Counted from the stretch's first letter, positions 44,901 through 58,623 are shown. The stretch: 64,000 nucleotides of DNA from Candidatus Lustribacter sp. (GCA_965277805.1 OZ255842.1:2432001-2496000), one strand, 5' to 3'. Notes: generated by a model from the letters alone, not told the origin. Translations and numbers: made by a program.

Positions 44901-45860
44901 CTATTTGGGCAACAGCAACTCGGACGCTTGGAAATTCGGGAAGTTGTTGTATTTTGACGATGCATCGATCCCGGGTTGCATGAGTGCCGCCGTCAGTTCT
45001 TCCGCATAGTGGCTGCGCACCATGCCCGCGATCGTTTCGGCCGGAATGCTCGTAATCTTCGAGAGGATCGCGCCGCTCTGGTCGTGATTCTTGTTCGCCC
45101 AAACGGCGGTCTGGTGAATGACCGAAACGAACCGGTTGACGAGATCCGGATTGGCCTTCGCCCAGGTCGGCGTCGCGACGAAAAGATTGAGCAGAAAGTG
45201 CTTCGAGATCGCGCTATAGCCCTCGAAGAGCACGCGAAATTGCTTCGACGCCGCGCCGAAGAACGGTTCGACTTCAAAGATTGCGTCGACGCGCCCCTGA
45301 GAGAGTGCTGCCGGCTGCGTCGGGAACGGGATCTCGACGTAGCTGACGGTGGATGAGTCGCCGCCGTTCGCGTCGATCCACGCGGACGCTCCCGTCGTGC
45401 CGAGGCTATGCAATGCGGGCGACGCGATCGTCTTCCCCTTGAGATCTTTCGCGGTGCGGATCGGTGAGTCGGGCTTGACGAGCACGCCCGCGGTTTTCAC
45501 CGTCGCCGGGTCGATATAATCGGTTGCCGGCGCGATCACGTAGAGCGGAATGTTGTGTGAGTGAATCGAGGCGACGGAGTCGATCGTCGTATAGCCGATG
45601 TCGAGCGCCCCGGCAACGACCGCGGCGACGATCGACGGCGTGTTCGACATCGTCGTGATCGTGACGTCGAGTCCGGCCTTCGTCCAGTAGCCGAGCTCTT
45701 TCGCGTAGGTGATCTCGGCCGCGCTTTCGGCTGCCAGCACGCCGATGCGCAGCGGTTGCAGCGTCTGGGCCCGCAGCGGCCCGGCAAATGCTCCAAGCGC
45801 TGCAGCGCCGGAGGCCATGGCAAGCACTCTCGCCCGCGAGATCGGCTGAAAATCGCGCAT
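44901..45860 (-). CDS. ABC solute-binding protein (SsuA/NMT1-like)
   Basis: DLKGKTIA, WIDANGGDSS, VDAIFEVEPF. Confidence 0.85.
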   Translation of the reverse strand: MRDFQPISRARVLAMASGAAALGAFAGPLRAQTLQPLRIGVLAAESAAEITYAKELGYWTKAGLDVTITTMSNTPSIVAAVVAGALDIGYTTIDSVASIHSHNIPLYVIAPATDYIDPATVKTAGVLVKPDSPIRTAKDLKGKTIASPALHSLGTTGASAWIDANGGDSSTVSYVEIPFPTQPAALSQGRVDAIFEVEPFFGAASKQFRVLFEGYSAISKHFLLNLFVATPTWAKANPDLVNRFVSVIHQTAVWANKNHDQSGAILSKITSIPAETIAGMVRSHYAEELTAALMQPGIDASSKYNNFPNFQASELLLPK

Positions 45861-45931
45861 TGATACCGTCCTTAAATCCGGAGGTTTCCGATGGCTTTTC
45901 GGCGAGCGCCTTTAGGCCCTCTTCGGAGCGG

Positions 45932-47140
45932 TTACCTGCGGCTGGTAAGGGGCGAAACGCCGCCGTCGTACGCCCGCGACGTGTAGCCGTCGTTGAGGGT
46001 CTCGAGGTATGCGATGACGTCGTCGATGTCGCGCTCGCTCCACACAGGCTTCTTCCCGCGTTCGCTCGCCAGCGGCGGGTCGATGACGTCGACATTGTTC
46101 CGGTAGCGCGCCGGAATATCGTCGTACTTCGCGACGGTGCCGTCGCGCGCGACGGGATACCACTTCCGCGGGTCGGTATCGCGCTGCACGTAGAAGCGCA
46201 ACGCATCGCGCAGCGTGTGAAACCGGCCGTTGTGAAAGAACACCCGTCGCGTCGCGACGTTGCGCAGCGTCGGCGTTTTGAAGAGCCCGCAATAGGTCTT
46301 CACCGCGGACCGATCCTTACGCAGCGGACCGCATAAGCCGAGATCGTAGTAGCGCGGGTTACGATTCGCCGGGATCTCCGCGTTGCGCGGCACCGCGAGC
46401 GCTTCGAACTGGTAATCGGTAAAGAGCGGGTGCGCGCCGTTGGCGCCCTTCGCGTCGATGTGGCAGAGGGCGCAACCGCCGCGCAGCGGATCGTCGAAGA
46501 GTTTCTTGCCGTGCGTTTCTTGCGCGCTGAGCGTCGCGTGACCGTCCAGATACGCATCGTATTTGCTCGAGTACGGATGAAAGCTCGGATCGTCGAGCTC
46601 GAAGGTCTCGATCGCGACGAGCGCCGATGCATAGGCCGTCTTCACATCGCCTAAGACATCGTGCCCGAACGCGGCGCGGAACTGCCCGGCGTAGGGAGCG
46701 GCGCGTAGCTTGGCGACGATCGCGGCCGGATTCAGGTTGGCCATCTCGGCCGGATTCAGCAGCGGAAATGCCGCTTGATCGCGCAGATGGTCGAAGCGCC
46801 CGTCCCACGTGAGTCCGCCGGCCGGCGCGTCGTTTTCGATCAGACGTTCGCCGATTTCGGTGGACTGCTCGTGAAACCAAATCGGTGCACGATTGAGCGT
46901 ATACCGCAACGACGGCACCGCTCGCGTGCCGGCGCGATCGAGGTGCGGGCCGCCGAGCTGCACGGCGCGAGCGTTCGGCGGCCCGTACGCGGCAAGCGGG
47001 CTATGGCAAGTCGCGCACGACATCTTGCCCGACGCGGAAAGCGTCGCGTCGAAAAACAACCGCTTTCCCAACGCCGCAACGGCGCTCGCATGCGCGGGCG
47101 CCGGCGGAATCAGAGTCGCCCCGGCGGGCGCTTGCCGCAT
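45932..47140 (-). CDS. Di-haem cytochrome c peroxidase/MauG-family protein (BthA-like)
   Basis: LGKRLFFD..LS.SG.MSCATCH, CALCH, FKTPTLRNVA..FFHNG. Confidence 0.9.
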   Translation of the reverse strand: MRQAPAGATLIPPAPAHASAVAALGKRLFFDATLSASGKMSCATCHSPLAAYGPPNARAVQLGGPHLDRAGTRAVPSLRYTLNRAPIWFHEQSTEIGERLIENDAPAGGLTWDGRFDHLRDQAAFPLLNPAEMANLNPAAIVAKLRAAPYAGQFRAAFGHDVLGDVKTAYASALVAIETFELDDPSFHPYSSKYDAYLDGHATLSAQETHGKKLFDDPLRGGCALCHIDAKGANGAHPLFTDYQFEALAVPRNAEIPANRNPRYYDLGLCGPLRKDRSAVKTYCGLFKTPTLRNVATRRVFFHNGRFHTLRDALRFYVQRDTDPRKWYPVARDGTVAKYDDIPARYRNNVDVIDPPLASERGKKPVWSERDIDDVIAYLETLNDGYTSRAYDGGVSPLTSRR

Positions 47141-47194
47141 GCCTCCAGAAACAAGCCACGCGCGACGCCGCAGAGGGCGAGCGTCGCGAGCTTG

Positions 47195-48448
47195 TTACGA
47201 CCCGGCCGGATTGAGGTTGGTATAGACGTCGGTCCCGAAGTCGACGAGCCCCGATGCACCCGCATAGCCGAGGTGCGGCAGACCGAAGATGTCCTCGATG
47301 CTCGCGAGCGCCGCGTAATGGTTGTACGGCTGTGACGATACCGTTCCGGCTTTGACGAGCGGTGAGAGGACGACCGCGCCGACGAGATCGCCACCGAAAC
47401 TCGTCTTGGTTAGATTGATCGTAAGACTGCCGGAGTTGATTACCGACGTTTGCGGGAAGGCGCCGAGATTCGGACCTTCTTGCTGTCCGCAGCACGTCGC
47501 GCCGCTCCAGGCCAGCGTTTCGGTGCTGCCGCTGACACTTGACGAGGTGATGTCGCTCTCGTCGAAGGTGATCAGCAGCAAGCCGTCTTTCAAGTAGGCG
47601 GGCGAGCTCGTAATCTGCGGGACCCAGTTTTGCAAGAACGTGTTGATGCGGCTGAGGCCGCCCGGTTTACCATCGATCGCGCACGGATTGTCGTGGCCGT
47701 CATCGCACAGGTTCGGAGTGATGAACGTGAAATTTGCCGTCGTCGTGACCGACTTCAGGTCGTTGGTGAGTTTGGCAAGATTGACGACGTTCGTCGCACA
47801 CTGTGGCGAGTCGATGATCGAGTGAAAGTACATGAACGGATCGTGGCGCGTCGCGTATGCATCGCCCAGCGGCGCCGTACCGCTCGGCGCTTCGGCCGTT
47901 TGGGTCATGTCGATCGTGCCGATCGCCGGATGTCCGCACGTTGCGCTCTCGCGGGTGGGATCGTTGCCCATGTCACCCATGTAACCTTTCCACGTGAACC
48001 CGCCCGCCGTGAGCTGATCCGCCAGCGTCTGGACGCTCGCCGGATAGATGCAGCCCGAGCCGCTGATCTGACCGTTGGCGCCGGCCGTTCCCGGCGTGAT
48101 GGAATTGAAGCCGGTCGTGCAATCGTTGTCGGTCTCGTTCGTCGGTGATTGACCCGCCATAAAGGACAGGTAGTTATCGAGACTCACGTGTCCCGTGCCA
48201 TAGTACTGATTGAGCAGCGCGCCTTGCGCCGGCAGCGTGGTCGCAAGATACGGCGCGGCCGATCCGGCGGCGAACGTTTCGGTATACGTTTTGTTTTCGA
48301 GCATGATAACGAAGACGTGACGGATCGCGCTCGTCGTCACGTGCGGCACCGCCGGCGAGGCGCTGCCTCCGTTGCACCCCGCGAGCATCGCACCAATGAG
48401 AAGGGAGCCCGCGACCATGCGCACGGCTCGAACGAATTTCGGCAGCAT
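47195..48448 (-). CDS. Phosphoesterase/alkaline phosphatase family lipoprotein
   Basis: LAGC lipobox; RHVFVIMLEN, HVSLDNY, ITPNLCDDGHD, TFDE, YNHY. Confidence 0.88.
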   Translation of the reverse strand: MLPKFVRAVRMVAGSLLIGAMLAGCNGGSASPAVPHVTTSAIRHVFVIMLENKTYTETFAAGSAAPYLATTLPAQGALLNQYYGTGHVSLDNYLSFMAGQSPTNETDNDCTTGFNSITPGTAGANGQISGSGCIYPASVQTLADQLTAGGFTWKGYMGDMGNDPTRESATCGHPAIGTIDMTQTAEAPSGTAPLGDAYATRHDPFMYFHSIIDSPQCATNVVNLAKLTNDLKSVTTTANFTFITPNLCDDGHDNPCAIDGKPGGLSRINTFLQNWVPQITSSPAYLKDGLLLITFDESDITSSSVSGSTETLAWSGATCCGQQEGPNLGAFPQTSVINSGSLTINLTKTSFGGDLVGAVVLSPLVKAGTVSSQPYNHYAALASIEDIFGLPHLGYAGASGLVDFGTDVYTNLNPAGS

Positions 48449-48561
48449 AGGTACGATGTTAGACGCCTGAGATTATGCCGCGTTCGTGATCACCTTATCC
48501 CGAGCTTAATAAGTAATCTCGTTCCGAGAGGTCGGCGTACCGGGAACAAGAAGCCGCGCGA

Positions 48562-48888
48562 ATGGATTATCATGAACACGCCGACTTGAGCTTAATTCCG
48601 GAACTCAAAGCACTCGATCCGGTTGGTTTTGCGGGCTTCGCCGCGCTGGACAAAACGGTGGGACGCACCGACGGTGCAATCCCGCAAAAGTATCGCGAAC
48701 TGATCGCGCTCGGCGTCGCGCTTACCACGCAGTGTCCGTACTGCCTCGACGTTCACACCAAAGCCGCAAAGAAAGCCGGCGCAACGCGTGAGGAGCTCGC
48801 CGAGACCGTGACGATCGCCTCCGCCCTGCGCGCGGGGGCGGCCCTTACCCACGGCTTGCTTGCTCTCAAGCTCTACGACAAGGCCTAG
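48562..48888 (+). CDS. Carboxymuconolactone decarboxylase/AhpD-like protein
   Basis: ELIALGVALTTQCPYCLDVH. Confidence 0.9.
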   Translation: MDYHEHADLSLIPELKALDPVGFAGFAALDKTVGRTDGAIPQKYRELIALGVALTTQCPYCLDVHTKAAKKAGATREELAETVTIASALRAGAALTHGLLALKLYDKA

Positions 48889-48919
48889 ACGCCCCGGGCG
48901 AGCGGTCTTCCTGGCGATT

Positions 48920-48959
48920 CTGGCACTCTATTGACAGTATTGCTAACGTCTGCCAAAAT
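48920..48959 (+). promoter_or_regulatory. CIRCE (HrcA operator) overlapping sigma70 promoter of hsp20
   Basis: CTGGCACTC-N9-TATTGCTAA vs consensus TTAGCACTC-N9-GAGTGCTAA; TTGACA(48931)-N17-CAAAAT. Confidence 0.7.
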
Positions 48960-49020
48960 AGTGGCATAGGGCCGTTGCGCCCGCCACTCTTCTGTCCAGA
49001 AAGGGACTACTGCGCGAGCC

Positions 49021-49428
49021 ATGCCGACCGACGTTGCACGCCTGAACAATCGCCCTGCCGCCGGCAACGGTGGCGCTGTCGCCACCTATAGCCCGTGGCG
49101 CGAAGTGCTGGGGTACGACCCCTTCCGCCGCTTCTTCTCCACCCTCGATCCCGAGATCAATGTCGTCCGCACGGAAAACGGCTTTGACGTGGAGATCCCC
49201 GTCGCGGGCTTCAAGCCCGAAGACGTCGAGATCACCGTCAAGGAAGACATCCTGACGATCACCGGCAAGAACGATCGCCGCGCGTTCACGCGCTCGCTGC
49301 GTTTGCCGGAAGACATCAACGGCGACTCCGCCGATGCGGTCGTCGAGAACGGGCTTCTCTCGCTGCGCCTGGAGCGCCATCCCGAAGCGCAACCGCGCAA
49401 GATCGAGATCAAGGCGAGCCGCAACTAG
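49021..49428 (+). CDS. Hsp20 small heat-shock protein
   Basis: FTRSLRLPE, A.VENGLLSL, PRKIEI. Confidence 0.92.
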   Translation: MPTDVARLNNRPAAGNGGAVATYSPWREVLGYDPFRRFFSTLDPEINVVRTENGFDVEIPVAGFKPEDVEITVKEDILTITGKNDRRAFTRSLRLPEDINGDSADAVVENGLLSLRLERHPEAQPRKIEIKASRN

Positions 49429-49452
49429 TCTCGCTCGCGAAGGCACGCGAAG

Positions 49453-49487
49453 CGCGTACGGTGATGAACCGTGCGCGTTTTCTTTTT
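49453..49487 (+). terminator. Intrinsic terminator after hsp20
   Basis: CGCGTACGGT-GATGA-ACCGTGCGCG followed by TTTTCTTTTT. Confidence 0.75.
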
Positions 49488-49496
49488 GGCGCTTGT

Positions 49497-50138
49497 TCAA
49501 TCTATGCGGCGCAACGTCACGTTGATGCGACCGCTATCGAACAAGCCGGCTTGCGTCAGCAGCGTCGACGTATGCAGACGGATCCGCTCAACGCCGTGAT
49601 AGACCAATCTCGACGCACCGCCGAACCAAATCAGATCTCCGCTGTGGAGTGTAAATCGCCGCACAGGGTCTTTTCGGGATAAGCCGCCCAGTGCGAAGGT
49701 TGCATCGTCGCCGAGCGATATCGAGACGACCGGCGCGTCCAGACTCCCCTCGCCACGGTCCTGATGTAGACCCAATCTCGCATCGGCGTCGTAATAGTTG
49801 ATGAGGCACAGATTGGGCGCGCGGGTTTCGCCCGTTACACGGCCCCAAACGTCCACCAAACGTTTCGGAATAGCGGGCCACGTTAAGCCGGTAACCGGAT
49901 GCGTACTCTGATACCGATAGCCACCGTCGCGGTCCGTCACCCAACCGTACTGGCCTGCGTTGCTCATACGAACGCTCAACGCGGCCCCGGTCTTCGGCAT
50001 CTTCTGTTGAAAGAGCGGCGCTTGCTCAAGGACGGCGCGAACGTCAGAAATGAGGTCGAGCTGTTCCGCCTCGTTGAAAAAACCGGGTAAGAAGTGGAAT
50101 CCCTCGGGAAAGGATTCCACCATAACGTTATGCTGCAC
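49497..50138 (-). CDS. alkB: AlkB-family 2OG-Fe(II) dioxygenase
   Basis: GWVTDR.GYRY, CLINYY, GLHQD, VVSISLG, YHGV, RINVTLR. Confidence 0.93.
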   Translation of the reverse strand: MQHNVMVESFPEGFHFLPGFFNEAEQLDLISDVRAVLEQAPLFQQKMPKTGAALSVRMSNAGQYGWVTDRDGGYRYQSTHPVTGLTWPAIPKRLVDVWGRVTGETRAPNLCLINYYDADARLGLHQDRGEGSLDAPVVSISLGDDATFALGGLSRKDPVRRFTLHSGDLIWFGGASRLVYHGVERIRLHTSTLLTQAGLFDSGRINVTLRRID

Positions 50139-50261
50139 TATGATGAGGTACTTCGCCGGCAGTTGCGATAGCCGAAGTCCCGTTCATATCCCTATTCAAG
50201 CACGAACGTCGCGCAGGACAAGTGCCCGATTTTTCGCTCTTCAACGTGGGGCGATCGTTCG

Positions 50262-50288
50262 TGGAGCGGGCGGCGGGAATCGAACCCG
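50262..50288 (-). repeat. att-site duplicate of the tRNA-Gly 3' end (27 bp)
   Basis: TGGAGCGGGCGGCGGGAATCGAACCCG identical to 56971-56997. Confidence 0.9.
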
Positions 50289-50404
50289 AGTTCTGCGACG
50301 CAGCGGCCGGCGGCCTCCCGATCTGATAGCCCGTCCGTGAACGCGATCTTCTCGAACACACCGGGCCGAGCCTCGCGCCGAATGGATGATCGTCCGAGAC
50401 AAAA

Positions 50405-51676
50405 CTAGTCTTTGTGCTTTCGCCTTTTGAGAACATCTCTCCATACCACGAGCGGATCAGCGGAGCCGAACTGTCCCCAACGCGCGCTAACAATGCTTGG
50501 ATACTCGTCATTCCCGAGCACTCCTACTTTGATGTTGTGGCCGCCCCTCGTAGACAGGACCTGCAGTTTCCATTTGGATCCGTCGCCATTGAGATTGTAA
50601 AGAATGCCGATTCGTCGTGTTGGCGATTGGTCTTGCTCCGCGAAGGCGATATCGAGGTAACCGTTACCGTCGAAATCGGCTAACTTCAGCGAACCTTGAT
50701 GCACGAAATTAACAGTCGGATCGATCATGTGCCTAACCCAGGTTCCACCGGGCATAGACGGCGCTTCGTACCAAACAAGCCCGCCTCCGCCGTACATGGG
50801 CGCGAGCAAGATGTCCTTGCGACCATTGTGATTTATATCGGTGATGGCCGTTGTCATATTGCCGGTGAAGAGCGGATGCGCGTCGATGATTTCCACTTGC
50901 CACCGCTCACGCAAGGGATCCCCGCGGTGATGTCGCGGATTCACAAAGCGGGCGAGCATTGTGGCCGAGCGATATGGAGCGATGATGTCTGGAATGCCAT
51001 CGGCCTTAAGGACGCCTAACGTGGTGCCTTGACCATCTCGCGGAATGATTCCGCGATCGGCAAAATCCCAGTGCTGCCCGCCGTTTTCGTTGAAGTATAC
51101 GCCCTGTTCCGTAACGATGTCGGGGCGACCGTTACCGTTGACATCGCCGAGCTGCACGTCATGTGAGTAGTGCTTTCGATCAATGGTTATTGACTGCCAA
51201 GGGCATTGGTAAACGTTCGAGCAAGCACTATGCCGAGGATTGAAAAGTACGCTCGTAACGAAATTCTGGCCGCCGGTAACGATGTCTGGTGCACCATCGC
51301 CATTGATGTCCGCAGTTCGAGCATCTTCGTCACCGCCCATGTAGTCGGCATGCGATATTCGGGATCGTTGACGGCCAGCGCCGTAAAGCTCAATTATAGT
51401 TGGCCCGTAGATGGCTCCCACGACTGAACCGCGACCATCAGCATCGATGATCACTTTGGCCTTATGGTTGCCACGCCGATCATCTAAGACGTATCGCTGA
51501 AACGGAACTGGCGACACGCGCGAGACGACGATGGTGGCAATGGGCTTCGCCCTGACTGGATTGGCGATGTCCTCTCGGTTCTTGAGAACGTTGAGCCCAT
51601 AGCGCTCATAACCTTCCCGAACGCCGAATGCAACGACCAAGGTCATGACAATCGCAAAGAGAGATCGACGATTCAT
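50405..51676 (-). CDS. FG-GAP/VCBS repeat secreted or anchored protein
   Basis: DINGDGAPDIV, DVNGNGRPDIV, DINHNGRKDIL, DFDGNGYLDI; N-terminal hydrophobic segment. Confidence 0.85.
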   Translation of the reverse strand: MNRRSLFAIVMTLVVAFGVREGYERYGLNVLKNREDIANPVRAKPIATIVVSRVSPVPFQRYVLDDRRGNHKAKVIIDADGRGSVVGAIYGPTIIELYGAGRQRSRISHADYMGGDEDARTADINGDGAPDIVTGGQNFVTSVLFNPRHSACSNVYQCPWQSITIDRKHYSHDVQLGDVNGNGRPDIVTEQGVYFNENGGQHWDFADRGIIPRDGQGTTLGVLKADGIPDIIAPYRSATMLARFVNPRHHRGDPLRERWQVEIIDAHPLFTGNMTTAITDINHNGRKDILLAPMYGGGGLVWYEAPSMPGGTWVRHMIDPTVNFVHQGSLKLADFDGNGYLDIAFAEQDQSPTRRIGILYNLNGDGSKWKLQVLSTRGGHNIKVGVLGNDEYPSIVSARWGQFGSADPLVVWRDVLKRRKHKD

Positions 51677-51992
51677 TAGGCTTTGACACTACCAAGCGAA
51701 AGCACGCGGCACAATCCCGTTAAGTCGGGAATTTGCTCCGGAACCCGTCACTGCTTCAGTTCATCGCCGAGGTGCCGTGAATCGGCCCATGGAATTGCCG
51801 GAAGCCTCCAGCGAACCCAAAGCGGCACAGCTGATAAGCCTCTAATATCGGACGCGCGCAACGGTCGCGTCCCGGGCGCGACGACGACGAAACGCGGTTG
51901 CGCGTCCAATAATCTCCGGTTATCGAGCACGTTGACATTCAACTGAGACTAACGGCTGAGCTGGCATGACCATCAAGCTACGGCGAACGGGG

Positions 51993-52742
51993 CTACACTG
52001 TTCCGACCGGCGCCACTTCCGAAGCGATCTTCACATCGATCGGCGACTGCTCTACTATGCTTTTCACGGCTGCATTCGGAACGTCAGCGGCGGGAAGGCG
52101 AAGGTATCTCGGTATATCAAACGCCGCGAACGCTCGATCGATCAGCGGCGTGATCTTCGATAGTAGAGGTATTTTCAACGAACCGGCCACGAACGGGACC
52201 TCCGCCAGCTTCCAAAACGCGAAGCCGGCAGCGAGTGCAGCCGTTCCGGCAAGTGCGAGCTCGAAAGGAGTGCGGCCGTGGCCGACAATCGCGGCAATGA
52301 GGGGCTCGTGCACGAGATAGATTGAATAAGATGCCACACCAATCGCAACGAGCACCTTACTCGACAACGCGCGTTGCACGTCCGGCGACGTTCCGACGGC
52401 GACGACGAAAAAGAATGTGGCGAGTTGCCATCCGACGATTGCGGGTTGATAGGCGTACGTGATATCGGAGCCGTCCGAACCGGGCATGCGTGCGGATGGC
52501 TCGGCCACAATTCCGGCAATAGCACACAACACCATCATTGCCGGCGAGCTGCGCTTGATCCAGGTCGTGGCGGGACCGCCAAGCCGGGCGCCGATGAATA
52601 AATCAGCCGCGACGATACCCAACATAAAACCGGGCAGCGTACCGGCATCGAGTCCGCGAGCGCGAGTAAAAGCATAGATGATCATGCTGGCAAGGCCTAT
52701 CGCGCAAAACAGCCTCGGGGACTTCAGCCATGCCAACAACAT
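51993..52742 (-). pseudogene. C-terminal half of acyltransferase-3 (OafA-like)
   Basis: L.AIGVASYSIYLVHEP, FWKLAEVPF; N-terminal half not found upstream. Confidence 0.65.
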
Positions 52743-52938
52743 CCGCTCTTTTGAGGAGCAGGTTTGTTCACGGAGAGTAAAGCGAATCGACGTTTTGGGG
52801 CATCGGGGTGATCCTCATCACGCAAACCCTTTGACTTTTGGCGGATAACGGTAATGGAATTGCTTGGGCCGAAACTGCCCTCGATTTGATTTTGTAAACA
52901 CCCTAGCGCACGTACCACGAAATCGCTAAGGTCGTTCC

Positions 52939-53145
52939 ATGTTAATGTCACTGAGAGAGGTGGGCACGCGCGTCAGCTCATGCCCGTATCCGACAAAAGC
53001 CGAGCGGGGTTGTAGGGCGGACATCGCGTGGTTTTGCGTGTCTTGCAAACGATTTTCGTGCGGGATGCACGTGACTCGCCAGAGTGGCAACGTGGCATGC
53101 CGGCATTGCGCGCAGCAGTTACGGCGCCTGGGTGATCTAAATTGA
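52939..53145 (+). CDS. Cys/His-rich Zn-finger-like microprotein 1
   Basis: C-x9-C-x5-W-x-C-x2-C-x4-C-x2-H-x9-C-x2-C. Confidence 0.65.
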   Translation: MLMSLREVGTRVSSCPYPTKAERGCRADIAWFCVSCKRFSCGMHVTRQSGNVACRHCAQQLRRLGDLN

Positions 53146-53468
53146 TGGATGGGCCGTCCAATGTCGATCAACGGGCCGGGGGACAAAACACGGCTCGAGT
53201 TTACGATGCTGACCGTCGCGTGACCAAAGTAGAGTGCGCGGAATCCACGATGCGCGGTGAGGCTTGCCGAGCGATTCCGCGTTGGCGGTGCCAAGGATGC
53301 GATCGTAACACGTGCGCCGATCATGTCGTCAGGCTTGCTACGGGGCCGCTTTGCGCAATCTGTAAGCAGCCGGCGACCCCGCTAATGCGGCGCGGCATTT
53401 TCTCGCACCTTACCGGCGAAACAGCCACGGTATTCATGAAGATACCTCCCCAACGGCTTAGCCGATAG
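53142..53468 (+). CDS. Cys/His-rich Zn-finger-like microprotein 2 (true start may be GTG 53220)
   Basis: Same motif and spacing as microproteins 1 and 3. Confidence 0.65.
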   Translation: MMDGPSNVDQRAGGQNTARVYDADRRVTKVECAESTMRGEACRAIPRWRCQGCDRNTCADHVVRLATGPLCAICKQPATPLMRRGIFSHLTGETATVFMKIPPQRLSR

Positions 53469-53472
53469 TGCG

Positions 53473-53703
53473 ATGAAAATCCAAAGGAAGGCCGAGCGAC
53501 GAAAACAGACGCCTCGTTGCGCGCAGGTCGTCGCAAACCGAAAACATTGCAAGTCGATACCGGCCTGGCGTTGCGAAATGTGCGCGACGGTTTTGTGCGG
53601 TGTGCACGTCGTCAGGAACGAGTACCGCGCGAGTTGCCGGCTCTGCGGCAGCAACGTGGTTCGCTTCAGTAAGCGCCTCGGCGAACGGCGAGCATCAATT
53701 TAG
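53473..53703 (+). CDS. Cys/His-rich Zn-finger-like microprotein 3
   Basis: Same motif; basic N- and C-termini. Confidence 0.7.
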   Translation: MKIQRKAERRKQTPRCAQVVANRKHCKSIPAWRCEMCATVLCGVHVVRNEYRASCRLCGSNVVRFSKRLGERRASI

Positions 53704-54131
53704 TTGCAGTGAATAGCGCCGGATGGTCCACTAGCTTTGCCCGGGCGCTTCGCGGCGACCAGTACCGGGGCGGGGGCAGGGCTACTCCCCGCGAAGGCGG
53801 CCCGTCCGATGAACTTTCGGACCACATGCACTTGGTAACCGACAAGATTCGCGAGGTCATGCCTGACGTGGCCCGGGTCGCGCACGGGCGCTGCGTGACG
53901 TGATCGCGCGGTTCGCAATCACTCACAGTCGACGCCTCCGACAGCAAGACGTGGTGGGTGAGGTTCGACCGCGCGCTGGTCTACGACGAGCGCCAGAGCG
54001 TTCGAGAGTGATCGTGACGGCGCAAAACGCGGCTGTGCACTTCACTTAGCGCGTTCGACGCCGCGACGTGCGTGACGATCGCCGCGAGCTATCGGCTAGA
54101 CTGTCGGGGCATACTCGTCGAGGACGAGGCC

Positions 54132-54284
54132 ATGCGCTGCCGGGCGTGTGGGTTTACGTCAACGTTGCCGGGCACGCCGGTCTCCGCGTGGCGCCGGCGT
54201 ACCTCTAACGTCGAGCCGACGGTGATCGAGCTGTGTGAGATCTGCGACGCTGCGGCCGGTGGGCAACCGGCGCCAACAAGCTGA
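54132..54284 (+). CDS. Zn-ribbon-like microprotein
   Basis: MRCRACG...LCEIC; GAGG upstream. Confidence 0.5.
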   Translation: MRCRACGFTSTLPGTPVSAWRRRTSNVEPTVIELCEICDAAAGGQPAPTS

Positions 54285-54349
54285 ACCTATTTGAATGAGA
54301 GAGGAGACGGGCGTACCGTTAGCGCTCTTTGCGTCGCCTCGAATTGAAA

Positions 54350-55003
54350 TTATTTTGCTTGTTTAGGGACGGCGTTGGTGCCGCAATTATTCAAGTCAAA
54401 CGGCTTCGCTCGAAATTCGAACCTCCAATTGTCACCGCCGTATTCATCCGAGCTCCCTACGGCCATGCTCCATTGATCGAAATCGTAAACGACCCGAACC
54501 TCTTGATCGAAAATTGTATGCGATACAAATGTTACGGTAGCGTCTTTCCAAGTCCAGCGGGATGCGTCCAGCGGCTCCGGACCGTAGGTGAAGAAAGCTA
54601 CAGCTTGTCCTGATTCCGATGAGGAATTTGCGGCGAAGTTCTGTACTTCGGGACAGCTCGATATATATTTCGGGTTCGCTGAAACATTTCCGGGTAGATG
54701 CAATTCTACTCGATTGCGGAACGCGGGTGCATTGCCTAGGTTACGTACTTTTTCCGTAAGCACAAGCTGCCAGAGCCGAACACCCGGAAACTCTACTGGG
54801 ACCTGTTCAAGAATACAGCTGTCAACTGCCAATAGACAAGTGAGCTGCTGACGGTGATGCAAGTCGGCTTGAAGAAACGCGAGCCTGCCTTCTTGGGCCA
54901 TCGCAGATGTACGCCATGCTAGCAAGGCCGTCGCCAAAGCAAGACCGATGGTCCCAATGGCAACTAGAGCGTCCCAACCAAAAACCCATGGATGCTCAGC
55001 TAT
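54350..55003 (-). CDS. Membrane-anchored hypothetical protein; ATA where a start codon is expected
   Basis: WDALVAIGTIGLALATALLAWRT TM helix; AGGAG SD followed by ATA GCT GAG. Confidence 0.55.
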   Translation of the reverse strand: MAEHPWVFGWDALVAIGTIGLALATALLAWRTSAMAQEGRLAFLQADLHHRQQLTCLLAVDSCILEQVPVEFPGVRLWQLVLTEKVRNLGNAPAFRNRVELHLPGNVSANPKYISSCPEVQNFAANSSSESGQAVAFFTYGPEPLDASRWTWKDATVTFVSHTIFDQEVRVVYDFDQWSMAVGSSDEYGGDNWRFEFRAKPFDLNNCGTNAVPKQAK

Positions 55004-55315
55004 AACAGACTCCTTCCGCGAGGCCGCGATCTTCGATTCGGAGCGCCCAGCGGAGCTCCCTATTCCCAGGCGCTGCGAATGCCATTCGGGGTAACTTCGT
55101 CTTGCCGGAGATGACCGCAGGTTCGTAACAGTTGATGAGCACCTGTCTGCAGAGACCGCTTCTGGTGGCGCCACGCCGGCGATCATCGAGACGCCTAGCT
55201 GTGTTCGATAAGTCGCTAATATCGAACGCGCCCCTCAGGCCATTGACGTCACAAGCGGTGAACGCATTGACTTTTTCGAAGGCGTGGCAGACGCATCGAA
55301 ATCGTTCTCAGTATC

Positions 55316-55610
55316 TTGCTCGTGGCCGCGTTGCCGCTATGCGCATCTGCTGAAGATTTTCCAAACCGTCCGACCGGCGTTCCCCTCATACATCCCGTGG
55401 GCCGGCTTTTGGACGATAGTGCCGGCGAGGGGCGCGGGTCGTTTGCGCTTCGGAATTTACAAACCGGCGCTGAAACGCAATATCGAATTGGTTCTCCAAT
55501 GACGGTTGATGGCCACGTAGCTCATTGCTTACAGCCTGGTGCGCGATCGATTCCTGTGCTACTACTGGCCATCATCCGTCATCGTTGGAAGGACTATTGA
55601 GACGCGGCGA
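55316..55610 (+). pseudogene. Probable frameshifted secreted protein
   Basis: Signal-like start; plausible continuation CYYWPSSVIVGRT is in another frame near 55550. Confidence 0.3.
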
Positions 55611-55832
55611 TCACGCGTCGCCTTCGGGGGATGTGCCCGCCGGCATCTCATCTGTGATCGTCGGCACCTCAACGGCATTAGTTGCGTCGAACTGATGAGT
55701 TTGGGCACACCACGGGCAAAGGCGAGCGCGTGGCAAAAATCCGCGCCACTGAAGAGCTGCGATAGAAGGCGCGTAGATGGTCGCGGGCAGTAGCTGATCT
55801 GTCTCCGGACACCTCATAGTTACGAAGGGCAC
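55611..55832 (-). CDS. Small CPxT...CPxC..H Zn-binding-like protein
   Basis: (M)PFVTMRCPETD...LCPWCAQTHQF. Confidence 0.55.
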   Translation of the reverse strand: MPFVTMRCPETDQLLPATIYAPSIAALQWRGFLPRARLCPWCAQTHQFDATNAVEVPTITDEMPAGTSPEGDA

Positions 55833-56073
55833 GGCGAAGATTTCGAGCCCGAGAAGGCGTCTCTCCTGTGGGCAGATTGCCACTCGTCCGCGCCACACGT
55901 TCCACCAAATCAGCCCTGCGATAAGCACAAATAACGTGGCTAAAAGTGTTTGCACCGTCGACGGGCGTCTGAACGCGAGCGCCACAAGGATCAGCGCGGA
56001 GGCACTCCACATCCAGGCGACCCAGGTTTTGTGGCGGGCCTTTTCGACGGCGTCATTTACCGGCGCCTTTTTC

Positions 56074-56480
56074 TCACAGGATCGCAGCTGCGAAGGCAGC
56101 CTTGCACACCTCATAACACTCGCAAGATGAGCCCTTGAGTAAGGCTTTCCTCTCGACGACGGCGCAGCCTCGCTGAGAACGGACCGCTCCGCGTTCTTGA
56201 AGGCTCGCCATCGCCACTGTTACGCTAGCGCGTCTAACGCCCAAAACGTGTGCCAAAGACTGTGTGTGATCTTTAATTCAGTTTTATGACCCTGTCTTGA
56301 GTTACTGACAGCGAGCGCGCGCACCGCTGAAGGACGGAATGCTTGGCGTTGCACGCCGCCAGTTGACCGGCGCAAAACAAGGTGGCAGTTACGTTCCGGT
56401 TCATGAGTCGCGCAAAAGATGCGCTACTCGTCATTTGCGCTCTGAATTGCTGAATTGGCATCATTGCAGAAATCAGTGAG
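56074..56480 (-). pseudogene. Crp/Fnr-family regulator relic
   Basis: QLAACNAKHSVLQRCAR..TQDR in one frame and LAHVLGVRRASVT..LQ..G..CECY in another; stop at 56273. Confidence 0.8.
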
Positions 56481-56663
56481 TTCAATCGGCAGAACATAGA
56501 CGCCACCCTAACACGCGGGCGCAGCCGCATCGGTCGCTTGCGCGTCACGCCGGAGCCCGGTCTCTTTAGCATTCAGGGCGATCCGAGTCGTGCGGGCGTC
56601 CGAAGGCGGCTTCGTCGAAGATTTGTACACCGAAGACTTCGTGAAGATCGAAGCGTACCGCGC

Positions 56664-56828
56664 ATGAGAAAAGTCACCAAGCGCAAGAAGTCTATCGTCG
56701 CCGAACCGCGCAGGTCCGAACCGTACATCTGCTGCGAGTGCGGCAAACCGATCATCGGTCGCGCGATGAAATACGGCCCTCCTCTGTCAAGTACGAACGC
56801 CTATCACCCGCTTTGCTATAACCCGTAG
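56664..56828 (+). CDS. Basic Zn-ribbon-like microprotein
   Basis: CCECGKPI...YHPLCY. Confidence 0.5.
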   Translation: MRKVTKRKKSIVAEPRRSEPYICCECGKPIIGRAMKYGPPLSSTNAYHPLCYNP

Positions 56829-56867
56829 CAACGTTATGCCGGACCTCGGGACTGAAGGCGTCTAGTT

Positions 56868-56895
56868 GTTTACCATCCGTTTACCACCCATTACC
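56868..56895. repeat. Tandem 11-bp repeats near the att site (integrase arm-site-like)
   Basis: GTTTACCATCC GTTTACCACCC ATTACC. Confidence 0.45.
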
Positions 56896-56970
56896 GCAGG
56901 AACGGGTCGGTCTTAATAAATTCTCCTGGACGGCCTACAAAGAAAAAGCCCGATAAAATCAAGCTTTTAA

Positions 56971-57044
56971 TGGAGCGGGCGGCGGGAATCGAACCCGCGA
57001 CTCTTGCTTGGAAGGCAAGGGCATTACCATTATGCAACGCCCGC
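56971..57044 (-). tRNA. tRNA-Gly(TCC)
   Basis: GCGGGCG..CGCCCGC-TCCA; anticodon loop CTTCCAA. Confidence 0.96.
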
Positions 57045-57430
57045 ATACCCCTGGTCGTCCCATCATTTGTCCCAATTTGCAGCAACTTCCCGTCACTTCC
57101 CGGAATTGCAGGTTGGCGGAGCTAGGCGTTCTCTGCTAAGTAACGCCGATCAGGCGGATGCGGCGGTGCATCCTGCGATTGCACGTATGGGGGCAAGCCG
57201 ACGCGGTCCGGCACGCCGGCCCACGCGAAGCAACGGCGCGACGGGCCGGATGCCGTCCAGCGGGCGCGACGCAGCGGTCAGGTCGTAAACGGCCGTTCGG
57301 CGACATACCCAGAACGTAAAGCCGGCCGCCAGCGCGACGGGCGGGCGCCACAAAGTAGGCGACGAGACGTGCAAATGGTGCGCGATCGTGCGGACGATCG
57401 GCTACCAAGGCCAAAAGACCCTAGTATCGG

Positions 57431-58459
57431 TTAGAGGTGGGTCGGGACTCGAACGCCGGCAGCCTTCTGTGCCGCGTTGATGAATGTCGTGTCGATCAAT
57501 GTACCGATCGGTTGTTCCAGCGGTACGAGGCTGTAGAGGTGCCAGAAGCGCTGTGTTTCTTCCAACGATGCAACGTGGATTTGGCCGTATTCACCCGTGT
57601 ATGGCGGCGACGGTATGGCCGCGATGAGATCGGGCGCGAGGCCCGTCCATTTCGCCATGATGGCGATCATTTCGGGCGTCCATTTGCCGTTCGCATCGGC
57701 GATGAACTTGCACGCCCTGACGTAACCGGTCAAGAAGCGGCGAATCGCATCCGGCTTCGCCTTCAGCGTTTTGGCCGAGGCAGCCAGGAAGCTCTCTTGA
57801 TAGCTCGGATCGACATCGGTGATCGAGAGCCAGCGATGGCCGATCTTCTGCTGCTCGAGTTGCGTGACCGTCGGCTCGTAGGCTGCTTGCACGTCGTTCA
57901 CGTTGCGCAATGACGCAAGCCAATCGCCGGCCGTCGAGAAACGTTCGCTGAATGTCATGTCGGCCGGCGTCAGCGCGGCGTTCGTCATCAGATGACGCGC
58001 GAGATACCAGCCTTCACCGCCCGGCGTTGCGCCGTCGAAGTGTTTGCCGCGTAGATCGCGCGGCGCACGAATCGTCTTCGCGTCCCAATCCGATTGCTTC
58101 ACGACGAGCCAAACCGCCGGGTTCCAGCCCTTGTGACTCGAGTTCGACGACGCGATCAGCTTGGCGTCGAAGCCTTGCGCGAACTGGTTGAAGAAACCGG
58201 GGTTCGCCGAGATCGTCGCGACGTCGACGTCACCGCGCGCGAGCGATGGGATGATCGACTGGCTCGAACCGCTGTGAATGACGGCCTGCACGTTCACGCC
58301 GGCTTGCGCGAAGAAGCCCTTGTCGATGCCGACCATCACCGGCAGCGTGAAGATCAGCTGCGGGTTCATCAGCACTTTCACGACGGGCAGCGCCGGCGTT
58401 TGCGCCCCGCTCGAAAGCGGCAGCAACAGCAGCGCGAAAAGAAAAAGGACGGCCTTCAT
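57431..58459 (-). CDS. ABC solute-binding protein (SsuA/NMT1-like)
   Basis: Signal MKAVLFLFALL; DKGFFAQAGVNV, DLRGK, AYEP. Confidence 0.85.
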   Translation of the reverse strand: MKAVLFLFALLLLPLSSGAQTPALPVVKVLMNPQLIFTLPVMVGIDKGFFAQAGVNVQAVIHSGSSQSIIPSLARGDVDVATISANPGFFNQFAQGFDAKLIASSNSSHKGWNPAVWLVVKQSDWDAKTIRAPRDLRGKHFDGATPGGEGWYLARHLMTNAALTPADMTFSERFSTAGDWLASLRNVNDVQAAYEPTVTQLEQQKIGHRWLSITDVDPSYQESFLAASAKTLKAKPDAIRRFLTGYVRACKFIADANGKWTPEMIAIMAKWTGLAPDLIAAIPSPPYTGEYGQIHVASLEETQRFWHLYSLVPLEQPIGTLIDTTFINAAQKAAGVRVPTHL

Positions 58460-58534
58460 AACCAAGAGCCTTTCCCTCGCTCGTTTGCGTTCCTGTCCGA
58501 AGACGCGCGCCGCGGTAACGGCGCGCGCCCGGAC

Positions 58535-58623
58535 TGGTGGGCAGGGTTGGATTCGAACCAACGTACCGCGTTAAGCGGGCCAGGTTTACAGCCTGGTGCC
58601 TTTAACCACTCGACCACCTACCC
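58535..58623 (-). tRNA. tRNA-Tyr(GTA)
   Basis: GGGTAGG..CCTGCCC-ACCA; anticodon loop CTGTAAA; long variable arm. Confidence 0.95.

Follow-up and report, generated by a model that had tools for sequence, protein, structure and literature searches.

What are three short open reading frames (ORFs) with a common pattern of cysteines and a histidine, lying end to end on one strand, and what might their products do? The ORFs occupy positions 52,939 to 53,703 of a stretch of Candidatus Lustribacter sp. DNA (GCA_965277805.1, OZ255842.1:2432001-2496000) that we call the window, meaning the whole 64,000 nucleotides analysed; positions are those of the window unless the genome is named. An initial annotation had taken them for a tandem triad of microproteins belonging to an undescribed two-zinc family on a mobile island. 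Judged from their sequences, genes A, B and C (Table 1) are genuine genes, probably transcribed together, that encode three diverged members of one family. We read that family as AN1-related, basic and two-zinc, carried as island cargo and equipped with arms that would bind nucleic acid or the machines that handle it, and taken whole this reading is one that we would hold about as readily as doubt. We are far surer of what it says about family and structure than of what it says about the target: we infer zinc binding and topology from the ligand pattern, and the target is speculative.

Genes A, B and C share a gapless core and are under selection

The ATG of gene B overlaps the stop codon of gene A by one base (TGATG), and only 4 nt separate the stop of B from the start of C, so that the three genes read as one translationally coupled operon. 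The overlap is also present at a related locus at 5.085 Mb of the genome and in copy 2 of the trio, the arrangement occurring twice in the genome inside a duplicated 1.5-kb block. An alternative TTG start for B at 53142 would give a product of 108 residues (ORF 53142-53468); the long N-terminus of B is common to the database protein P0002.

When the three products were aligned with MAFFT, a 43-residue core matched with zero internal gaps, in the form C-x9-C-x5-W-x-C-x2-C-x4-C-x2-H-x2-R-x6-C-x2-C. Three adjacent same-strand ORFs that align gaplessly had been predicted, and both the ORFs and all the peptides quoted for them were found. Identity is 31% between A and B and 28% between A and C. The further claim, that only the ligands, W, V and R are fixed, holds in part: all of these are invariant in the trio (C15, C25, W31, C33, C36, C41, H44, V45, R47, C54 and C57), but M1, R63 and G65 are fixed as well, and W, V and R vary across the wider family in the 54-sequence alignment described below.

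Nei-Gojobori ratios of nonsynonymous to synonymous substitution (dN/dS) in the plus-strand frames were 0.16-0.30 in eight paralogue pairs, with 0.16-0.21 for gene A against its paralogues; a ninth pair was saturated. Four orthologue pairs with a sister species (genome G003) gave 0.15, 0.35, 0.20 and 0.61. The resulting span of 0.15-0.61 over 12 informative pairs shows purifying selection on the zinc-protein genes. Together with retention of the eight ligands at 12/12 genomic loci, it accords with the earlier view that selection acts on a fold. The low ratios in the plus frames mark a long antisense ORF at 52926-53324 as a shadow of the coding frames. All 12 genomic copies of the zinc-protein genes are intact, while a neighbouring gene, X, is broken.

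The family is small, stand-alone and patchily distributed

The 12 loci were found with a profile of A, B and C searched against the window's single-contig 5.53-Mb genome, a check of the kind that the initial annotation had proposed. Their E values run from 9.5e-37 to 4.5e-11, far beyond chance, and three weaker matches (E 1e-3 to 3e-2) were excluded from the count. The full core spacing, with eight ligands, W and R, is kept in all 12.

A profile search of 1,835,955,588 representative proteins, made with no length filter, gave 44 matches at E <=1e-3 and 14 at <=1e-10. All but one of the 44 are small stand-alone proteins of 62-189 residues, and no fused or multidomain form was found among them. 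The 724-residue P0036, which has eight stretches of repeated C-x2-C…C-x2-C without the C-x2-H pair, was treated as unrelated. A word-indexed protein search returned seven proteins, none with a Pfam domain and all called "hypothetical protein" where named.

Our alignment of 54 sequences took in 45 database proteins together with 9 of the 12 genes of the window genome; it omitted the three genes of copy 2, which are near-identical, as well as P0036, and P0006 and P0024, which carry long N-terminal extensions. Columns C16, C26, C34, C42, H45, C55 and C58 do not vary, and at least 90% of the sequences keep C37. Some relatives or subfamilies have C-x12-C in place of C-x9-C, or C-x-C in place of C-x2-C.

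Of seven further genomes searched in the genus, five have a match, with 0-5 matches per genome against 12 in the window genome, and matches are found in 0/33 genomes from other genera of the same family, order and class. Across the phylum, the 54-sequence profile matched 17/401 genomes at E <=1e-4, a count that includes the window genome and one unpublished genome (G260), from which no other result given here derives. The family is patchily distributed in its phylum, the sole phylum surveyed by genome. Scans with the narrow pattern C[RK][AS]IP[RA]WRC found three loci in genome contigs, all in the sister species, and one in metagenome contigs. No relative was detected by tblastn in 50,697 phage records or 72,556 plasmid records, and none in a pattern scan of viral contigs.

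Relation to AN1 and other zinc-finger families

No Pfam, NCBIfam, PHROG or PADLOC model matched A, B or C at its cut-off, and a PDB sequence search gave nothing better than E 0.2, in agreement with the initial statement that the spacing fits no recognised family. PHROGs, NCBIfam and PADLOC also gave 0 matches for X, for its neighbour Y and for two small WPCGC proteins encoded elsewhere in the genome. A narrow literature search, which cannot show absence, found no published description of the family. The best Pfam rows were ANCHR-like B-box for B (15.2 bits, cut-off 27), zf-UBP for A (13.5 against 22.7) and zf-C2HC5 for C (13.8 against 25.8); the first of these is the best score against the B-box models (PF00643 / PF22586).

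The sub-threshold matches nevertheless include zf-AN1, ANCHR-like B-box and zf-HIT, in line with the suggestion that the C-x2-C-x4-C-x2-H core recalls AN1 and B-box fingers. At E <=0.1, ANCHR-like_BBOX, zf-HIT and Zn_ribbon_8 each match 7 of the 54 members, zf-AN1 matches 5 and zf-B_box 2. AN1 fingers have a central core spacing of C-x(1-2)-C-x4-C-x2-H, consistent with the model alignment, in which positions 13-28 of zf-AN1 (PF01428) fall on the C-x2-C-x4-C-x2-H core of B-type genes at 12-13 bits. This AN1-like spacing is kept in 12/12 members of the window genome. A six-frame search of that genome with the AN1 model recovered the three B-type genes only (12.4-13.1 bits), and hmmscan scored B at 8 bits to AN1 with no AN1 row for A or C. 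The closest approach was an outlying member, P0039 (family-profile E 1.9e-4), with 26.7 bits over AN1 positions 1-31; no member reaches the 27.9-bit cut-off.

The ligand sets also differ. PMC5035049 describes AN1 as a finger of the Cys6His2 type (CC-CC-CH-HC) whose two zinc clusters, CC-CH and CC-HC, are cross-braced. The trio family has the set CC-CC-CH-CC, its last pair being C-x2-C in 54/54 sequences. Since it departs from zf-AN1 in both score and ligand set, we place the family outside the Pfam entry. On this sequence comparison it is undescribed and best filed as a CC-CC-CH-CC variant of AN1-like cross-brace fingers. In the ESM Atlas the nearest clusters were unnamed hypothetical proteins (score 0.90), followed by B-box/Prok-RING clusters at 0.85-0.87, which we treat as leads only.

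Predicted structure and zinc sites

The AlphaFold model of type C has a mean predicted local distance difference test score (pLDDT) of 79.0 and a predicted template modelling score of 0.59; residues 21-60 score 82-92 and both termini 56, and the only secondary structure is beta strand. The type B model (mean pLDDT 63.8; core 69-87; residues 1-28 and 86-95 below 50) agrees with it. In the PDB, Foldseek found nothing at E <=0.001, its top row being the zinc ribbon of TFIIE-alpha (5gpy_A; E 0.4, probability 0.95, 40 columns, root-mean-square deviation (rmsd) 1.7). With VIA-align, 101 of 48,161 chains had Z >=2 and none Z >=5, the top rows being a small archaeal 30S protein (Z 3.8), the BIRC7 RING, TFIIE and the CPEB1 ZZ domain (all 3.6); a second comparison gave 159 of 607 chains at Z >=2 and again none at Z >=5. 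B-box, RING and ZZ are the commonest domain types among these rows, at Z 2.4-3.7 over 43-51 residues with rmsd 2.7-3.4 (named rows: PML B-box1 6imq, BIRC7 RING 4auq and p62 ZZ 5yp8). The proposed structural check against AN1, B-box and RING thus gave a weak RING and B-box resemblance and no AN1 structure among the matches listed.

From the eight conserved ligands, and by analogy with AN1, we infer two zinc ions per protein. The 43-residue core is predicted to fold around them, most likely in a cross-brace. Site 1 would, by the same analogy, be formed by C1, C2, C5 and H, and site 2 by C3, C4, C7 and C8, a zinc-ribbon-like knuckle pair.

Charge and proposed function

The median isoelectric point (pI) of the 54 members is 9.56; it exceeds 9 in 45 of them and lies below 7 in three. 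Type C has 19 Lys and Arg in 76 residues. Types B and C carry [D/E]RR ahead of the first Cys and a basic tail, [F/L]-x-[K/R]-R..[D/E]RR, past the last, and these arginine-rich terminal regions are predicted, from low pLDDT, to be disordered. We propose that the zinc core is a rigid support for two disordered, arginine-rich arms, one at each terminus, which it would offer to a partner of negative charge. Such a partner may be nucleic acid itself or a machine that works on it, RNA polymerase or the ribosome for instance, and the three proteins would then serve as small accessory regulators that travel in variable regions.

A more specific form of this proposal is that A, B and C, made in matched amounts from their translationally coupled operon, assemble into a hetero-oligomer with two-zinc cores and arginine-rich arms. 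It would dock on RNA polymerase, on the ribosome or on a specific RNA, and integrative islands of Eremiobacterota would thereby have a portable, previously unknown class of AN1-derived regulators. We regard it as a long shot. Eukaryotic AN1 fingers have roles in protein turnover; were the proposal right, prokaryotic AN1-like fingers would, unlike these, have been recruited for nucleic-acid control.

Origin of the trio

The second copy of the 1.5-kb block lies at 4852012-4853505 of the genome, with 91.5% identity over 1,501 columns and sharp edges (blastn and base-by-base alignment). The block carries no terminal inverted repeats. Neither copy shows any damage to the three zinc-protein genes. 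X, for which five database relatives and no Pfam domain were found, is disrupted in the window by indels close to each end and by an in-frame TGA (Table 1) that reads TGG in copy 2. One source names one relative a lysozyme inhibitor, a name that we do not credit. The differences between copies in gene Y fall mainly at third codon positions; its sole Pfam match is DUF6300 at E 0.043, below the cut-off, and no named relative was found.

Parts of the block recur separately in the genome. At 5.085 Mb the paralogue of the island's FG-GAP gene stands directly upstream of an A-B pair, which is followed by a 71-residue WPCGC protein, and this order is syntenic in the sister species. At 2.715 Mb X and Y come after a C-type gene, while at 4.865 Mb X and Y stand without a zinc gene beside a SocA/Panacea gene. 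Because A-B and C-X-Y recur apart from one another, the trio is a composite of both modules. The tandem triad of the initial annotation is accordingly real as three genes, but as an arrangement it is a composite specific to the window genome. We suggest that an A-B module was joined to a C-X-Y module and that the block was duplicated later. The genes are cargo of the island described below.

Several further features of these modules were noted. The X beside the 2.715-Mb C-type gene (genome 2714588-2714796, minus) was matched in two frame-offset pieces and may be a second decayed X, the zinc gene and Y being intact. The WPCGC proteins form a small Cys-rich family, with one gene right after the A-B pair (5086074-5086289), one at 4872161-4872331, 220 nt before an A-like gene, and three more genomic copies; they are syntenic in the sister species and have no match in Pfam, PHROGs, NCBIfam or PADLOC. 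About 90 nt upstream of A (52849-52938) are conserved with 5085535-5085624 of the genome despite near-saturation at synonymous positions (dS about 2), and may hold a promoter or 5' untranslated region. The promoter scan found 0 sigma-70-like sites, and terminator-like sites were not enriched (5 against 2.7 ± 1.7 expected).

The tRNA-Gly island

The trio lies within an island bounded by perfect direct repeats (Table 1), the 27-mer occurring exactly twice in the 5.53-Mb genome. In the sister species the flanks 48525-50288 and 56971-57403, 91-95% identical, abut with a single 27-mer between them, from which 6,709 bp have been inserted in the window genome. The repeats at the tRNA-Gly 3' end, the empty site and the lower G+C support the mobile island of the initial annotation.

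Table 1. Positions of the trio and of the surrounding island features in the window.
Feature	Position	Strand	Details
Left 27-nt direct repeat, att-like	50262..50288		Perfect repeat bounding the island
Island body	50289..56970		6,682 bp; G+C 0.571 vs genome 0.643; missing from sister species G003
FG-GAP repeat protein, 423 aa	50405..51676	-	Pfam FG-GAP_3 2.3e-14; paralogue 55.5% identical at 5.085 Mb
Acyltransferase-3 fragment without N-terminal half	51993..52742	-	Pfam match to profile positions 150-300 of 326
1.5-kb duplicated block	52762..54258	+	Carries the trio, X and the greater part of Y
Gene A	52939..53145	+	68 aa, type A, starts MLMSL; ORF listing; start kept in type-A relatives
Gene B	53145..53468	+	107 aa, type B, ATG start; ORF listing
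Gene C	53473..53703	+	76 aa, type C, pI 10.9; ORF listing
X remnant, about 80 aa, unnamed family	53808..54011	+	In-frame TGA at 53901-53903
Gene Y, 70 aa, C-x2-C ... C-x2-C zinc-ribbon-like	54072..54284	+	ORF listing; unnamed family
Right 27-nt direct repeat	56971..56997		Equals the 3' end of tRNA-Gly(TCC)
tRNA-Gly, anticodon TCC, integration target	56971..57044	-	ARAGORN; Rfam tRNA 69.5 bits

Between the start of the acyltransferase fragment and the duplicated block's left edge lie 20 nt. Other island ORFs comprise frames of 278 and 167 residues without a significant family, a fragment with a Crp helix-turn-helix (HTH), and a 54-residue Cys/His ORF. With Pfam, the scanned island ORFs yielded FG-GAP, Acyl_transf_3, the Crp-HTH fragment or nothing, and in the Rfam scan the tRNA alone was significant. 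As the island is only 6.7 kb long and has no recognisable integrase, we take it for a probable remnant, or for one that a recombinase encoded elsewhere mobilises in trans.

Two observations stand apart. The 54-residue ORF (56664-56828, plus), with a CC-x-C … H-x2-C pattern and no Pfam match, is a possible small zinc protein. Outside the island, a di-haem cytochrome c peroxidase gene and a phosphoesterase gene at 45931-48524 are missing from the syntenic region of the sister species, a second indel near the island.

Neighbourhoods of family members

All-against-all clustering of the ORFs around 25 loci showed that within-genus synteny and the X/Y, FG-GAP and WPCGC modules alone recur. Adjacency to NMT1/THI5-like genes was rejected as chance, the genome having 284 such loci and a random site lying within 5 kb of one in 37% of cases, against 4/7 zinc-protein loci. 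By tblastn, the 5.53-Mb genome has about one of these substrate-binding-protein loci per 19 kb, a very large paralogue expansion, of which 44901-45860 and 57431-58561, both minus, are examples in the window.

Toxin-antitoxin genes (AbiE-like, RES/HTH and SocA/Panacea) lie within a few kb of several members, and copy 2 of the block has a tyrosine recombinase gene (Phage_integrase family) at a distance of 3.1 kb and an rve_3 fragment at about 4 kb. The AbiEi-like/AbiEii-like pair at 5087347-5089229 of the genome is 1.3 kb downstream of the A-B-WPCGC genes; its AbiEi match is weak, and the NTP_transf_8/AbiEii matches are 3.4e-8 and 1.6e-5. A tRNA-SeC gene (4941254-4941347) about 5 kb from a single C-type gene at 4.946 Mb may mark another tRNA-linked island, and a possible excisionase-like HTH ORF was seen by eye between the two.

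Discussion

Several results weigh against our reading of the family as AN1-related island cargo that binds nucleic acid or its machines. High pI is suggestive of nucleic-acid binding, not specific for it. The structural matches are all weak (Foldseek E >0.001, Z <5) and could reflect generic zinc knuckles in the predicted models, and no AN1 structure was among the Foldseek and VIA matches listed, by which an AN1 fold is not excluded. Pfam found no recognisable integrase among the island ORFs, three of at least 180 residues (423, 249 and 278) and four smaller. No neighbour is conserved across subfamilies around the 25 loci, and the members of another genus sit not in islands but in conserved chromosomal contexts beside a beta-lactamase-family gene.

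The family members might instead be protein-protein adaptors that recruit or mask a host or island protein, for example for proteolysis, with A, B and C as specificity variants or parts of a heteromer. Eukaryotic AN1, B-box, RING and ZZ domains are adaptors of this kind, and the weak fold resemblance to RING, B-box and ZZ and the sub-threshold matches to AN1, B-box and HIT would suit such a role, as would the translational coupling of A and B, which suggests matched production. However, no ubiquitin-like, E2 or protease gene was seen near the members scanned with Pfam, no conserved neighbour offers itself as a partner, and the strong positive charge fits nucleic acid better; we consider adaptors of this kind doubtful.

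A role in conflict between mobile elements, as anti-defence or exclusion factors or as toxin-antitoxin-linked regulators diversified by an arms race, would account for the island location at tRNA-Gly, the recombinase gene and rve fragment near copy 2, the toxin-antitoxin genes close to members, and the patchy spread with its excess of copies in one genome. Against this stand the lack of any PADLOC or PHROG match and of relatives in the phage, plasmid and viral-contig collections searched, dN/dS values far under 1 that give no hint of positive selection, and the stable chromosomal contexts of some members. Conflict factors are, in our view, unlikely. The initial idea of diversified adaptors or sensors in regulation or conflict amounts to speculation, as no conserved partner, defence-library match or phage or plasmid relative was found.

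Island genes do decay (the X remnant, the truncated acyltransferase and the Crp-HTH fragment), and the three ORFs could be chance or decaying frames without function, or a mere zinc buffer. This is very improbable given the purifying selection in the plus frames, the 12/12 intact copies beside a broken X, and the fixed ligand spacing; Cys makes up only about 10% of residues, which differs from metallothioneins. Scarcely credible, finally, are tandem-encoded, Cys-modified precursors of ribosomally synthesised and post-translationally modified peptides: small, Cys-rich, tandem and diverged paralogues would suit, but the 43-residue domain is conserved throughout, at His, Trp and Arg as well as Cys, without a leader/core split, the predicted fold is compact, and Pfam found no radical-SAM, lanthionine synthetase or YcaO-type gene among the island and neighbour ORFs scanned.

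The preferred reading, a basic two-zinc family with arms for nucleic acid or its machines, offers a solid family description with a proposed function, and no mechanistic surprise. It adds a compact family from an uncultured phylum, with an unusual CC-CC-CH-CC pattern described by no database model searched, and a clean, datable case of an island at tRNA-Gly, in which the two att-like repeats are present and a sister species shows the empty site. Should zinc stoichiometry and target be established, the family would be a bacterial branch of the cross-brace zinc fingers and a stable scaffold of ~45 residues.

Comparison with known systems

Like other tRNA-integrated islands, the island is flanked on each side by a repeat of the tRNA 3' end, is absent from a relative in which the site is empty, has lower G+C, and carries accessory and decayed genes; it differs in its size of only 6.7 kb and in having no recognisable integrase or excisionase.

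Among protein folds, the zinc ribbons (TFIIE-alpha 5gpy/1vd4 and the knuckle insert of methionyl-tRNA synthetase) gave the best Foldseek rows, with C3/C4 and C7/C8 of the trio family matching their two C-x2-C knuckles on beta-hairpins. The similarity is not significant (E 0.4), and a plain ribbon lacks the four further ligands C1, C2, C5 and H. B-box, RING and ZZ domains have an aromatic-x-C-x2-C knuckle in common with the trio family and are small two-zinc domains, as its core is predicted to be, but the trio family falls under their Pfam cut-offs, at Z <4, and has no E2, coiled-coil or other partner domains.

From AN1 (for example yeast Cuz1, PDB 5IJ4) the trio family differs in that its first pair is C-x9-C and not a short knuckle, that its last C-x2-C lies nine residues past the His, that its model consists of beta strands and has none of the helices reported in Cuz1, and that its members are stand-alone, highly basic bacterial proteins scoring far under the Pfam cut-off. 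It resembles AN1 in having eight ligands in four pairs and a central core of alignable spacing, and the two-zinc cross-brace of AN1 (PMC5035049) is the arrangement that we propose for A, B and C.

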